Source: Octopus vulgaris (lineage: Eukaryota). From it: 64,000 nt of DNA. The notes under the pieces are model-generated. The model saw only the letters and a list, made by a program, of their open reading frames with translations. It had not been told where the DNA came from and ran no database searches. The stretch covers positions 28,706,001 to 28,770,000 of the forward strand of contig OX597836.1 of the NCBI GenBank assembly GCA_951406725.2, written 5' to 3'. Positions 715-50,724 of the stretch are shown one piece after another. Made by a program: the position numbers and the translations under genes. The stretch's first letter is position 1. Every line of letters begins with the position of its first letter.

Positions 715-1360
715 ACCGCATGTGCAAAATACATATTAAAGTTGGAAATTCTAGCAATATTATTGGCAGAATTATTGTATAACAAAACAAGAAATTGGAA
801 ATGCTTTCCTTTCCTGTTTTGTTTTATGTATATAGTTAGTATGTGTGTGTGTGTGTGTGTGTGTGTGTGTGTGTGTGTGTGTGTGTGTGTGTGTGTGTGT
901 GTGTGTGTGTGTGTGTGTGTGTGTGAAGGTGCAAAGAAAAGATGATTGTATATAGTAATAATAAGGAATTAAAGGTACATACCAGTTGTTTCAGGTGGCG
1001 CAGCTAAAATAAAACAAACAAAAAAAAAAACATTAGATATCACCAACTTAACTATCATCATCATCAACATCATCATCATCATTATTAGCATTTTCAATAT
1101 GGTCAGCAGCATCATTAACAAAATTGTTTTCCTTAATCAATTCTGAAATTTGGCCCCTAAAGTGAATATTAACTCTAAATCATCCACATTTCAAAATTGG
1201 CATGTCTCATCAGCCCCACAGTGCATGGTTAAAATTATGAAAGCTGTGCCAGTCTGACTGCTTATTTATCAAATTCATCTGGTGGTATATATCTACCAGA
1301 AAGTCTATAACATCCTCTATGATACTCGAATAGCCAAGTCTATGATGATGATTCATATTC
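715..1360 (-). repeat. Duplicated micro-exon cassette, copy 1 (21-nt family)
   Basis: Colinear with 2155-2720 and about 28955-29410: (GT)n, gaaggtgcaaa..agatgat, the exon, a (CAT)n tract, ttatcaaattcatctggtg. Confidence 0.85.
983..1003 (-). CDS. 21-nt micro-exon (AAPPETT)
   Basis: ttgtttgttttattttag|CTGCGCCACCTGAAACAACTG|gtatgt; phase 1-1. No stop codon is reached, so the gene continues beyond the window start. Confidence 0.82.
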
Positions 1361-1529
1361 TAAGACTGTATGTGTGTGTATGTATGTATGTATGTATGTA
1401 TGTATGTATGTATCTATCTATCTATCTATCTATATATCTATCTATGTATCTATATACACATAGAGAGAGAGAGAGAGAGAGAGAGATAGATAGATATATA
1501 AATAGATACATATATCTCCTGCACTATCT

Positions 1530-2005
1530 CTGACACCTCTGTCTCCTTTCTTGACATTTTGGTCAGCATTCATCACTCCACCCTTACCACCTCCATCCAC
1601 TACAAACACATAGACTCACACTCATACCTCAACTTATCCTCCTTCCACCCTAAACACACCAAGCTTTCCATCCCCTATTCCCAATTCCTCCATCTACGCA
1701 GGCTCTGTAGTGACGACCATGACTTTGAGACTCAGTCACTTCATCCTACGTGAATATCCCCTCACCACTATCCACACCTCCCTGGACTGTGCATCTGCCC
1801 TGGACCATGCATCTGCTCTCTCCCCCTCAACCCACCCTGCAGTCTCCCACCTACCTTGGCAATGACACCCCGGTCTCACGCCATTTCCGCTCTACCGGTC
1901 ACTCTTTGCAACACCTGTCCGTGTTCGGATTGTCCTTGCACAGAGGCCATCTGGACTTCCGTTTGCACCATGAACAGGGAGTAATTTTCTCTCTTCGTGC
2001 CACAT
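1530..2005 (+). mobile_element. Internally deleted Penelope-like element
   Basis: FLDILVSIHHSTLTTSIHYKHIDSHSYLNLSSFHPKHTKLSIPYSQFLHLRRLCSD (PLE RT thumb region), followed by PVSRHFRSTGHSLQHLSVFGL...EQGVIFSL (GIY-YIG C-terminus). Confidence 0.8.
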
Positions 2006-2154
2006 GGGCTCAACTCTCCTCCCCTTGCCTTTACAGAATAAATTATATTATATATGTTGGTAGGATAAAATTCCAGTCATTTCCTCTTGAAGTACATTTG
2101 CTTATTCCATTATTATAATCCAATATGTAGCTTATTTTAGTTTATGTTATTGCT

Positions 2155-2720
2155 GTGTATGTACAAAATGCATATCAAAGTTGGAAATTCTGGCAATATT
2201 ATTTGCTGAATTACTGCATAACAAAACAGGAAATAGAAAATACTCTAATTTCCTGTTTTGTTTGATGCGCACGCGTGTGTGTGCGTGTGTGTAGTTTGCA
2301 TGTGCATGAGTGTGTGTGAAGGTGCAAACAAAAGATGATCCTATACAATAATAGTAATAAAGAATTAAAGGCACATACCAGTTGTTCCAGGTGTTACAAC
2401 TGAAATAAAAGAGAAAAACAAAGATGTTAGACATCACCAACTTCACTATCATCAACATCAAGATCATCATCATTATCAACATCATCATCATCATCATCAA
2501 TATCATTATCTTCCTTATGATCAGCATCATAATCAACTTAATTTTTTACTAAAAGAATTTTAAAGTTGTAACCCCCAAAGAGAATATTAATTCTCACAAA
2601 AATATATTATCAACATTTCAAACTTGTTGTGTCCCATTAACTCCAGTGTGTACTTAAAATTATTCATGTTCTGCCAGTTTAGCTGATTATCAAATTCATC
2701 TGATGGAGTACACCTATGCT
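2155..2720 (-). repeat. Duplicated micro-exon cassette, copy 2 (21-nt family)
   Basis: Direct homology to 715-1290. Confidence 0.85.
2379..2399 (-). CDS. 21-nt micro-exon (FVTPGTT)
   Basis: tttttctcttttatttcag|TTGTAACACCTGGAACAACTG|gtatgt; phase 1-1. Confidence 0.82.
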
Positions 2721-3029
2721 GGACAGTTTGACAGGAGCTGGCAAATCAGAAGACTGCGCCAAGTTCTGCTGTCTGAGTTGGTAAGGTTTCTACAGCTGAA
2801 TCTCCTTCCTAACCACTTTACAGAGTGTAGTGGGTGCTTTTTACATGGCGCCAGCAGCAGTGAGGTCATCAAACAACTAAAAGACAAGATCTCTTGACTG
2901 AGGTTGAGGGTAATATTGAGGTAGGTGGCTTTGTGCCAGGTGATTATTAGATTGCTAAAGAATAAGGATACTGCAAGATGATAGGATAATAGAAGGAGAA
3001 ATGAAAGAGAAAATTCCAAAGAGTACAAA

Positions 3030-47789: not shown

Positions 47790-48190
47790 TCTTTTACTTG
47801 TTTCAGCCATTTGACTGTGGCCATGCTGGAGCACCACCTTTTAGTCGAGCAAATCGACCCCAGGACTTATTCTTTATAAGCGTAGTACTTATTCTATCAG
47901 TCTCTTTTGCCGAACCGCTAAGTTACGGGGACGTAAACACACCAGCATCGGTTGTCAAGCGATGTTGGGGGGACAAACACAGACACACAAACATATACAC
48001 ATACATATATATATAGATATATACGATGGGCTTCTTTCAGTTTCCGTCTACCAAATCCACTCACAAGGCTTTGGTTGGCCCAAGGCTATAGTAGAAGACA
48101 CTTGCCCAAGGTGCCATGCAGTGGGACTGAACCTGGAACCATGTGGTTGGTAAGCAAGCTACTTACCACCCAGCCACTCCTACGCCTACA
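47790..48190 (-). mobile_element. tRNA-derived SINE family A (full length)
   Basis: Head ggtaagtagcttgcttaccaaccacatggttccaggttcagtccc and tail ctccagcatggcc..ctgaaacaagtaa. Other copies or fragments at about 11215-11430, 21300-21487, 21890-22090, 23850-24225, 26355-26790, 32950-33275, 38730-38865, 59905-60050, 60720-61140 and 63430-63805. Confidence 0.85.
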
Positions 48191-48722
48191 TATATATGTA
48201 TGTATGTAAGTACGTATGTATGTATATATATGTGTGTGTGTGTGTGTGTATACATACTTACATGTGTGTGCATATGTATGTCTTTTAGATAAAAAAAATG
48301 TATAGAAAGAAAGAAAAAAGGGTAGGAAATAAAAGAAAAGAAAGACAAAGAAAAGGGATAGATTGATACACATCAGTCGATTCTATTTTTTTTACCCTTT
48401 TGTTTCCTTCACATTATTCCCATTTTCATTTTCCTTCTATCCATTCTTTCTTTAAAATTTACATATTGTGTTCATTCATTTGTGTGCATGTGTACTTGCA
48501 TGTGTGTCTCCATGTGTGTATGTGGATGCGGATTGGCTTACGTGACTTTATGTATTAGCAGATTAGCACTTGCGTGTTAATATGCAATTTTTTCCATGTT
48601 CACATTTATTGAGTTGCCATTTTGGCATTATTCACTAATGTCTAGGATCTTTTACTTTACACATACAAACATGCATATGTATATATATATGTGTATATAT
48701 ATAGTATATATATATATATATA

Positions 48723-49040
48723 TAATAAAATATTAGGGAATAAATCCAAACTTACAGGGAAAAATCAGATTTAGGATTGAATCCAATTTTATAGTAAAAT
48801 ATTATATTATATTAAATTAGAGATAAAACCACTATTAGGCAAATCAAACAATGAAAAACTTAAGCCAATACATAAAATTAATCAATTTATATTATTTTAA
48901 ATATATATCAAAATTATTAAAAGTTTAATAAAAGATAATGAGTAAAACACTACGATCGTTTCATGGCTGTCCATCATCATCATCATCATCATCGTAATAA
49001 TTCGACTTATGGTTACAGTTATGGTTACAGTCAATCTCTA
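48723..49040. mobile_element. Second copy of the 25692-26258 element
   Basis: Near-identical to 25692-25980, with a (CAT)n insertion in the hammerhead stem II region; between (TA)n tracts. Confidence 0.8.
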
Positions 49041-50453
49041 ATTTAATATAATATATATATATATATATATATATACATATGCATATACACATACATATAT
49101 GTATACATATATATATATATGTATGTATGTATGTATATACATGCATACATACATACATACATACATACATACATACATACATACATACACACACACACAT
49201 AAGAAACAAATTAAAAATAATGGTCATTACATATTTTTCCTTTATTGGACCAAATTTGATCTACAGCTGTTTCAGTAGTCATTATAGGTTCATTACTGAT
49301 AAGTTTACTCAGTTGGTCTATTGATCAATTGAGGAAATGTGAACAACCTAAGAAAATTAATGCTACAATGATGTTCCAGCTTTGACCACCCTGGCTTTTA
49401 TTTAAACATATATGTATGTATATATATATATATATATATATATATATATATATATATATATGTATATAAATATAAGAGAGCGACCACTATGTGGTCTACT
49501 CTAGCACTAAAAATAGATCCATTGGGCTTCAGCCACATAAAAAATGTCTCCGATGAATATTAGCACAACTACTGGCGCAGACAGGGCAAATAAACATAAC
49601 AAAAATTCAAATTAATGAAAATCCGGGTTTTATATGCACTAAGCCACTAGGTGTTAAATGGATGTACTATTAAATTAGTATAAAAATTTCTCGCCCTTAT
49701 TGGTTGTTTATATATATATGTATATATGTATATATATATATATATATATATATATATATATATATATATATATATATATATATATATAGTGGTGGTGAGT
49801 GAAATGTGTAATTTACTTTTCAAACTAAGTTCTTTTTCCCCCATTTCATAGCCCGTCTGTAATGCTTTCATTTGATTAGTTGATGGGAAAGGCGAAGAGC
49901 GAAAGACAAAGGAAAGAGAAAAAGAGGATAAGGTGAAAAGTGAGAGAAAAAGATGGAGAGTGCTGTGTATAAAGTCTATAAAATTGTGCATAAAGTATAT
50001 GGAGTGTATATATATATATATATATATATATAAAATGCATTAAATAATCATCGTATTCCAATTTCCTTTACTTTTCAATGATTAGTGGATGAGCAACTGT
50101 CTTTTGATACAGACACAACACAGACTACATTTCCAGGTTTTTTGGATAAAGTTTTCGGAAATAACCCAATAATTTTACCATTAATTCCATGAAATATTCA
50201 CGGATCTTTCTAGTTGTTTCTAATTTAGGCACAATAATAGCAATTTTTTGTTAGAGTGCTGTTCTAGCTGATTACTTGCACTCCAGTACCTGAGTAGTAC
50301 TTTAGTTTCTCAGGTTTGAGGGACAAAAAAACTTCCACCTCAACAGGATCAGAATGTAAAGACTGCCCCAAAAATACAGTAATGCATTTTGTCCAACGTC
50401 CAAACAAATCTGCCAATTAAAAAAAACCATGTTATGGAAGAAAAGTAACTTAC

Positions 50454-50724
50454 CTTGGCCAGAAAAATAAATGGCCACGACAATTCCAGCAGCAACGCCT
50501 ATCACCACAAGTAGAATTCCAAAAATTATTAGAAACTTCTTGCAATTGTGGCCGTTGGAAGAATAATCTGAAGGCATGTCATCCCAGTCATTGTTACTCT
50601 CTCCAGAAAATAAAGTTTGCTTCTGTGTGTTTGGCCAGGTGCGCTGCAGCCGACTCACCAGTTCTGGCTGATAAGCCAAGTTGTCGTATTGAGGGCCCCA
50701 TTCTTTGTCAGCTGCATTTGAATA
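50454..50724 (-). CDS. Exon A of a type II transmembrane SEA-domain protein (cytoplasmic tail + TM helix)
   Basis: Acceptor ctttttcctttggcag and donor G|gtaagt; 271 nt, phase 0 to 1. Encodes YSNAADKEWGPQYDNLAY...NCKK-FLIIFGILLVVIGVAAGIVVAIYF-SGQ. Basic residues before a ~24-aa hydrophobic helix suggest type II topology. Joins in frame to the downstream exons. Confidence 0.9.

Follow-up and report, generated by a model that had tools for sequence, protein, structure and literature searches.

To which gene do the short exons on the minus strand of this locus belong, and does the gene use them to vary its product by skipping? The locus lies in Octopus vulgaris, and the stretch that was analysed as a whole (the window) comprises 64,000 nucleotides of contig OX597836.1 (G000:C23:28,706,001-28,770,000). 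An earlier note on this DNA had proposed a hidden minus-strand gene for a type II membrane protein with a SEA domain, the stalks of which are assembled from symmetric micro-exons in variable combinations. We find that the window is most likely the 5' part of one gene that extends over ~28,535,000-28,868,000 on the minus strand (~330 kb) and would encode ~3,980 residues. For the reading as a whole, namely that a single large gene encodes a type II membrane serine protease and that its micro-exons are mostly constitutive, we estimate a probability of about 0.55.

Exons in the window

The nine-exon chain of the earlier note was recovered completely, with every one of its peptides on the minus strand at the position proposed for it. 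Each of the nine exons is preceded by AG and followed by GT, their total length is 709 nt and the joined frame is open. They are listed here with positions counted in the window; P0001 is the public Octopus vulgaris model CAI9739542.1 (225 residues).

50724-50454, minus: E1, 271 nt, cytoplasmic tail and type II transmembrane segment (~50535-50470), phase 0 in and 1 out; its upstream partner is one of three first exons lying outside the window
29046-29026, minus: micro-exon m1, 21 nt, phase 1-1, paralog of m4, m5, m6 and m7; not in P0001
21137-21123, minus: micro-exon m2, 15 nt, phase 1-1, tandem duplicate of m3; present in P0001
19871-19857, minus: micro-exon m3, 15 nt, phase 1-1; present in P0001
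16056-15950, minus: SEA1 exon 1, 107 nt, phase 1-0, with an 83% DNA copy 24 kb downstream
12468-12401, minus: SEA1 exon 2, 68 nt, phase 0-2
3790-3621, minus: SEA1 exon 3, 170 nt, phase 2-1, with GSLIV at the position of the SEA self-cleavage site
2399-2379, minus: micro-exon m4, 21 nt, phase 1-1
1003-983, minus: micro-exon m5, 21 nt, phase 1-1, with an identical copy (m6) 3.1 kb downstream, outside the window

E1 is 86% identical to its counterpart in O. bimaculoides (P0016) and 59% identical to that in Argonauta (P0014). Of 24 sequencing runs listed for the E1 stretch, 20 contain at least half of its words; no RNA run on record is among them (14 of the 20 are guessed to be RNA), and they carry no weight for expression or splicing. 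The proposed type II topology agrees with the hydropathy of P0001, which has a single hydrophobic stretch at residues 67-88 (peak 3.16) and none at the N-terminus (maximum of -0.84 over the first 30 residues, no signal peptide). Two Lys stand directly ahead of the transmembrane segment.

The five micro-exons of the window exceed chance expectation. We scanned strictly for segments of 6-36 nt that follow a polypyrimidine tract and AG and end at a good donor, and the five matches on the minus strand of the window were these five micro-exons, with no match on the plus strand. Over 364 kb the same scan gave 10 matches on the minus strand, seven of which are Thr/Pro exons of the gene, and three on the plus strand. 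When the window was shuffled 200 times in 12-nt blocks, open matches with a length divisible by three had a mean of 0.44 and a maximum of 3, so that 0 of the 200 shuffles reached five; matches of any length had a mean of 1.4 and a maximum of 6. A looser scan from E1 to the first LDLa exon produced 22 candidates, eight of them the known small exons. The other 14 have neither Thr/Pro content nor cassette homology and were not accepted as further micro-exons. The micro-exon donors (GTATGT, or C preceding GTAAGT) deviate from the consensus at one place or more. A UGC preceding the acceptor is a motif of neural-type microexons; ahead of these acceptors it was found only within the acceptor itself, in m1 and m7.

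Two observations concern the cytoplasmic tail. At window:50658 E1 contains a consensus-like donor (GTGAGT, phase 0) that could shorten the tail or delete the anchor. The tail itself (window:50724-50660) carries a Tyr motif, YDN..YQ.E, which is common to Octopus, Argonauta and P0006, described below, and is a possible sorting or phosphorylation signal with a likeness to the tails of vertebrate type II transmembrane serine proteases.

Extent of the gene

For the continuation of the gene we examined 200 kb of DNA beyond the window on the downstream side. The exons outside the window, in genomic coordinates, are as follows.

28,773,617; 28,832,182; ~28,867,700, minus: three first exons (L028, L034, L037), phase 0, spread over 94 kb
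28,703,858-838, minus: micro-exon m6, 21 nt, identical to m5
28,699,845-825, minus: micro-exon m7, 21 nt
28,698,225 to 28,691,767, minus: SEA2, three exons
28,690,169-28,689,156 (L004:3156-4169), minus: mucin exon, 1,014 nt, phase 1-1
past the mucin exon and ahead of the first LDLa exon, minus: 30-nt Thr/Pro exon

Starting in E1, the frame stays free of stops over the seven micro-exons, SEA2, the mucin exon and finally the 30-nt exon, and it continues into P0045, a public model (CAI9739539.1, 3,279 residues) that we mapped to 62 exons down to 28,535,086 with 61 of 61 junctions resolved. The start codon of P0045 is an internal ATG in the last codons of the mucin exon, and that exon has a good acceptor upstream. 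The mucin exon is missing from the public models retrieved. It encodes 337 residues, 43% of which are Ser or Thr, with 17 N-glycosylation sequons, and includes 14 repeats of 18 residues with a sequon in each. At the other end of the gene, the three first exons match the N-termini of the O. bimaculoides isoforms X3, X1 and X2 in 3/3, 15/17 and 8/10 residues, respectively. They are evidently alternative first exons and would supply three cytoplasmic N-termini.

In the Argonauta hians model P0014 a single protein comprises the anchor, one SEA domain, a Thr/Pro stalk of 322 residues, LDLa and MAM. As it joins the anchor to LDLa and MAM, P0014 favours a connection over the gap left by the public annotation and bridges the supposed boundary between a short gene and a protease gene. 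At least three public fragments and one missed mucin exon would then most likely form one protease of ~3,980 residues, which mends the annotation of the locus. Residues 271-592 of P0014 consist of 24 seven-residue repeats, a unit length equal to that of the 21-nt exons. The ESM Atlas held no usable match for P0014, and P0005, a candidate from the protein search, was dropped as a repeat artefact.

Contrary to the earlier note the gene is not hidden: P0001 already includes m2, m3, m4 and m5, four of the five micro-exons of the window. It also holds m6 and m7 and matches the exons of the window identically. It omits m1, and it cuts through SEA1 via internal splice sites, with a donor after 12415 in exon 2 and an acceptor at 3729 in exon 3.

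SEA domains

The assignment of a SEA domain held: against Pfam PF01390, P0001 scored 28.5 bits (cut-off 26.4, E 1.8e-6) and Argonauta P0014 scored 46.7 bits over positions 2-96 of 106. With SEA1 exons 1 and 3 submitted alone Pfam gave 0/2 matches. A six-frame genome search with PF01390 returned no match for the locus or for the controls and is thus uninformative for a domain split over three exons. We also built a SEA profile from six stretches that match P0001 (four fish or bivalve proteins and two others), a choice of seeds that biases it towards P0001. With this profile SEA1 reached 80.8 bits, P0001 60.4 bits and SEA2 60.1 bits, compared to 9.8 bits for the best of 200 shuffles. Since the complete SEA1 scores higher than P0001, the SEA boundaries of the earlier note are better than those of the public model.

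At the cleavage site SEA1 has GSLIV and SEA2 has GSIDT. The corresponding Gly-Ser motifs given in PMC2958558 are GSVVV for mucin, GSVIV for enteropeptidase and GSVIA for matriptase. The motif of SEA1 resembles that of enteropeptidase, and cleavage is predicted from this motif.

The two SEA domains are identical in 61 of 110 residues, with a ratio of nonsynonymous to synonymous substitution rates (dN/dS) of 0.89 (bootstrap 0.53-1.46). This would fit relaxed or mixed selection and does not differ from neutral drift; the comparison of SEA1 with SEA2 did not show positive selection (Fisher p 0.68). All three SEA2 exons retain AG, GT, length and an open frame. With O. bimaculoides P0008 the identity of SEA exon 3 is 49%, and elsewhere it is 86-98%. 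Against Argonauta, which has a single SEA domain at the corresponding place, the first 67 SEA residues show 58% identity, E1 59% and LDLa-MAM 58%. With this equal match, a generally fast evolution of the SEA region was not upheld.

Domain composition and predicted protease activity

Pfam identified 23 LDLa, 5 MAM, 2 Trypsin and an SRCR_2 domain in P0045, to which an SRCR exon and a Frizzled (Fz) exon are added; there was no Pfam match to CUB. The full protein would begin with the cytoplasmic tail (from one of the three alternative first exons), the transmembrane helix, three micro-exons, SEA1, four micro-exons and SEA2. The mucin exon and the 30-nt exon would come next, then LDLa, the MAM domains, a further LDLa stretch, SRCR, LDLa and protease 1, and a long LDLa run, Frizzled, LDLa, an SRCR-like domain and protease 2 would complete the order. 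Two small Ser/Thr/Pro exons of phase 1-1 and of 27 and 39 nt (L018 and L017, at -145299 and -149925 in the frame of the window) flank the Frizzled domain.

The catalytic His, Asp and Ser motifs are all present in both protease domains, and among solved structures the protease region matches enteropeptidase best (7wqx, E 4.6e-48). Activation sites are usually of the IVGG type. In P0045 a Phe precedes both activation sites (residues 1232 and 3027) and domain 1 starts with VQYG. At residues 1404 and 3215, which we take to be the specificity-pocket position, there is Pro or Thr and no Asp. The octopus protease, judged from its sequence, is probably not trypsin-like in specificity. Because Phe stands before both activation sites and the pocket has no Asp, we would venture a guess at chymotrypsin-like self- or cross-activation.

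By these features the gene would belong with the type II transmembrane serine proteases. Going by domain order, we take its first half to be enteropeptidase-like and its second half to be corin-like. It may also be compared with Drosophila Nudel, a type II protein of large size in which numerous LDLa repeats are combined with two protease domains; the SEA, MAM, Frizzled and mucin modules of the octopus gene set it apart from Nudel. By the family description (PMC2958558), the likeness to enteropeptidase (TMPRSS15), the matriptases and corin extends to the tail, the type II anchor, a SEA domain with the Gly-Ser motif, a stem of LDLa, MAM, SRCR and Frizzled modules and, at the C-terminus, a trypsin-like domain that bears His, Asp and Ser. 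Its length of ~3,980 residues, the presence of two copies each of the SEA and the protease domain, the 23 LDLa and 5 MAM, the lack of a CUB match and the stalks made of 15- and 21-nt exons distinguish the octopus gene from the members of this family. No description of this architecture was found in the literature searched, which covers few subscription journals.

If the gene behaves as other members of the family do, the protein would be inserted with its N-terminus inside, and the SEA domain would be cut at its Gly-Ser motif, leaving the ectodomain either tethered or shed. Stalks that are predicted to be O- and N-glycosylated would keep the binding modules and proteases off the membrane, and the proteases, once activated by cleavage, would process surface or secreted substrates.

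Origin of the micro-exons

The five 21-nt exons have 160-220 nt of flanking sequence in common at 74-99% identity, and the identity for the two 15-nt exons is 91%. Genome searches located the 21-nt cassette at no fewer than five places and the 15-nt cassette at two or more, all within this gene, and a further search gave five matches, again all in this gene, which is single-copy. A transposon origin was rejected as no copies were found elsewhere in the genome, with the search counts taken as lower bounds. The closest relative of m1 is m7 (84%), and the SEA1 and SEA2 regions have collinear intron patches with 94% identity over 985 nt, 90% over 806 nt and 99% over 599 nt. Both observations indicate that a unit consisting of micro-exon and SEA exons was duplicated. 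By their similarity, m2/m3 and m5/m6 come from further local duplications, and gene conversion was probably involved as well. The locus offers a clean series of micro-exon births in one gene, with an identical pair, a 91% pair and copies at 75-84%.

For m5 and m6 the exon and 120 flank bases are identical. An echo of the assembly was discarded as an explanation, the units being only 86% alike over ~730 nt. The 21-nt exons exist in four distinct versions; these vary within their first 13 bases and agree completely in the last 8 and in the donor. The pair m2 and m3 has differences in 5 of its 15 exon bases, compared to only 3 in 120 flank bases (Fisher p 4e-4; p 7e-4 with a wider flank of 282 nt). 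This is the only one of 11 pairs with a p-value below 0.004, whereas the other 10 range from 0.036 to 1. Between m1 and m7 we counted 18 differences in 119 flank bases, compared to 76 in 350 for the flanks of the duplicated SEA exons, which is not significant (p 0.14).

All seven micro-exons keep AG, GT, length and an open frame, at 15 or 21 nt and phase 1-1. In O. bimaculoides P0008, which was compared as the putative counterpart of SEA1, the two heptads after the SEA exon match m4 in 5/7 and m5 in 6/7 residues. P0006, encoded by a 1,049-nt Logan contig, has the transmembrane segment, a Thr/Pro stalk and SEA in one piece, and a heptad in it matches m7 in 6/7 residues; it is probably the transcript of a relative. 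These matches, together with the stop codon that results when m4-m7 are left out (see below), support the micro-exons as real coding exons. They would be working exons that arose by tandem duplication of cassettes of exon plus flank and by one duplication of the unit of micro-exon and SEA exons.

Two further features were noted in the introns concerned. The 599-nt patch (window:2715-3313 against -14372 to -14970 in the frame of the window) is 99.3% identical, while the exons of the SEA unit are only 74% identical, and may be due to recent gene conversion or a twin insertion. At window:18926-19764, 93 nt past the donor of m3, there is a foldback with arms of ~380 nt that are 99% complementary and a loop of 74 nt. 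Its core gave at least 88 matches genome-wide, from the 40 of 1,701 candidates that were scored, and it looks like an insertion of the miniature inverted-repeat transposable element type. Speculatively, it would give long double-stranded pre-mRNA beside m3 and could influence editing or splicing.

Stalks and the question of skipping

The stalks are rich in Thr and Pro as described, with 39% and 55% Ser/Thr/Pro over 18 and 29 residues that include 4 and 10 Ser/Thr, respectively. Each micro-exon adds five or seven residues, and the stalks, short spacers predicted to be O-glycosylatable, would set the access to SEA1 and the gap between SEA1 and SEA2.

The earlier note had stated that any subset of the micro-exons can be skipped without creating a stop. 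Within the window this is correct, as all 32 patterns of its five micro-exons are open, but it fails for the whole gene. If all four exons of the second stalk (m4-m7) are skipped, which is one of 16 patterns, a TAA arises at the join, and therefore at least one of them is needed. Of the 256 patterns of the eight small exons up to the first LDLa exon, 240 are stop-free; the other 16 run into a stop, and the number of different products that are possible is 192. The symmetry of the exons, which had been taken as a sign of skipping, does not single them out either: 50 of 61 downstream introns are in phase 1, and 1-1 is the phase of 42 of the 61 exons there, so that a small exon born here would be 1-1 by default. 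On our preferred reading the micro-exons would mostly be included, any skipping would be limited, and they would be 1-1 because the whole ectodomain is. A preprint on O. bimaculoides (bioRxiv 10.64898/2026.09.05.749416), which measures exon inclusion in eight tissues, may bear on the matter.

Comparison with known micro-exon and spacer systems

The earlier note had likened the gene to the micro-exon genes (MEGs) of Schistosoma. As a comparison in kind this is not supported, and the gene is not a MEG, since exons of at most 36 nt contribute 192 nt or 1.6% of the ~3,980 codons. According to PMC4350168 and 10.1101/2023.06.21.545858, MEGs encode a signal peptide and no more than 189 residues, have 10-20 short exons, with micro-exons making up most of the coding region, and are variably spliced. 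The octopus gene is similar in having several symmetric exons of 15-21 nt, kilobase introns and an extracellular product. It differs in its signal anchor, its giant modular protein and the 1.6% of its coding sequence in micro-exons, and the skipping demonstrated for MEGs is putative in it. VAL-6, where only part of the gene is MEG-like, is the nearer parallel (PMC4350168).

In origin the cassettes resemble SmPoMuc of Schistosoma mansoni, in which, according to PMC2576457, a 27-nt Ser/Thr/Pro exon with predicted O-glycosylation was tandemly duplicated together with its flanking introns, the flanks being more than 94% alike. Here, too, a short Ser/Thr/Pro exon was duplicated with its flanks (74-99% over 160-220 nt). 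SmPoMuc has up to 20 near-identical units of 1 kb and forms a gene family with copy-number polymorphism, whereas the octopus gene is single-copy and its 2 + 5 cassettes have diverged. For the mechanism suggested in the earlier note the best precedent is CD46 (membrane cofactor protein). Its short Ser/Thr/Pro (STP) exons, according to PMC2118878, encode an O-glycosylated spacer next to the membrane, the length of which is set by alternative splicing. The proposed function is alike, but CD46 is a type I protein with a 15-residue unit, its splicing is proven and it has no sequence relation to the octopus gene.

Alternative explanations

Within the same gene the micro-exons could be skipped independently, depending on tissue or stage, so that stalks of various lengths would result, with up to 192 products. 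We regard this as possible, if somewhat unlikely. All small exons are multiples of three nucleotides with phase 1-1 and 240 of the 256 patterns are stop-free, but this symmetry is the background of the gene (42/61). The omission of m1 from the public model and donors that are not fully consensus also speak for skipping, as do the three first exons that the gene already has, matching the isoforms X1-X3 of O. bimaculoides, and the precedents of CD46 (PMC2118878) and SmPoMuc (PMC2576457). The kept flanks (3/120) and differing exons (5/15) of m2 and m3 would fit conserved splicing signals or diversifying exons. However, gene conversion of the flank, of which the 90-99% intron patches are examples elsewhere in the gene, explains the same contrast, and the flanks of m1 and m7 are no better kept than those of the SEA exons (p 0.14). 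Furthermore, the seven micro-exons amount to 45 residues and the main mucin stalk is one ordinary exon of 337 residues, so that skipping would have a small effect on length except right under SEA1. Apart from P0001 with its missing m1, no other micro-exon pattern was found in the protein records searched. A bolder version, which we consider unlikely, is a MEG-like module in a free-living mollusc: the seven micro-exons would be spliced combinatorially by tissue, would outpace the introns in their evolution and would tune the spacers round two fast-changing SEA domains, with the skipping of all as an off switch or a protease-less decoy. Should reads show independent skipping, spacer variation of the MEG or CD46 type would exist outside parasites and mammals; if they do not, the locus is a curiosity of gene structure.

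It is quite improbable that some cassettes (m1, one of m5 and m6, or the SEA2 unit) are dead or rarely used duplicates that recent duplication or conversion has kept alike. Such a decay would account for the identity of m5 and m6 including 120 flank bases, for the missing m1 in the public model, for the dN/dS of 0.89 between the SEA domains and for the single SEA in Argonauta. Yet the seven micro-exons and three SEA2 exons are all intact in AG, GT, length and frame, the last 8 bases and the donor of the 21-nt copies are invariant, the m5 and m6 units are only 86% alike over ~730 nt, and SEA2 still reaches 60 bits on the SEA profile. We hold it to be very improbable that the locus contains a short stand-alone mucin-like membrane gene, with transmembrane segment, SEA and Thr/Pro tail, next to a separate protease gene, which is how the public annotation and the earlier note present it. 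P0001 is annotated as a separate protein of 225 residues, in bivalve relatives SEA is followed by different domains (a WAP domain in P0009, an ephrin-receptor-like one in P0010), and a read-through into the intron after m7 or the skipping of m4-m7 would yield a short form, which may exist as a minor isoform. Against a separate gene, the frame and phases are continuous into the LDLa exon, the downstream model begins inside an exon with a good upstream acceptor and Argonauta P0014 crosses the boundary.

Several points weigh against our preferred reading of one protease gene with mostly constitutive micro-exons. None of the protein records searched (1 match among 145 candidates; 13 representatives; 26 of 1,148, one of them from the locus; 3 of 647) reaches from the anchor to the protease. 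The public models split the gene, and a common transcript for anchor and protease is predicted from the continuous frame and the Argonauta model; P0001 runs on past m7 into the intron and ends there, and P0044 and P0046, the models of O. sinensis and O. bimaculoides, span the second half only. P0008 and P0014 are gene models rather than transcripts, and the orthology of P0008 is presumed. The VQYG of protease 1 departs from the IVGG type. With regard to splicing, the term mostly included rests on a base-rate argument, the non-consensus donors would suit skipping, and the missing m1 and the other SEA1 splice sites of P0001 may be prediction errors or real alternative forms.

Other features of the introns

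Two intronic tandem arrays were observed in the window. The first, at window:27253-28295, has a period of 64 nt and lies just past m1, and the second, at window:53376-54058, has periods of 67 and 168 nt.

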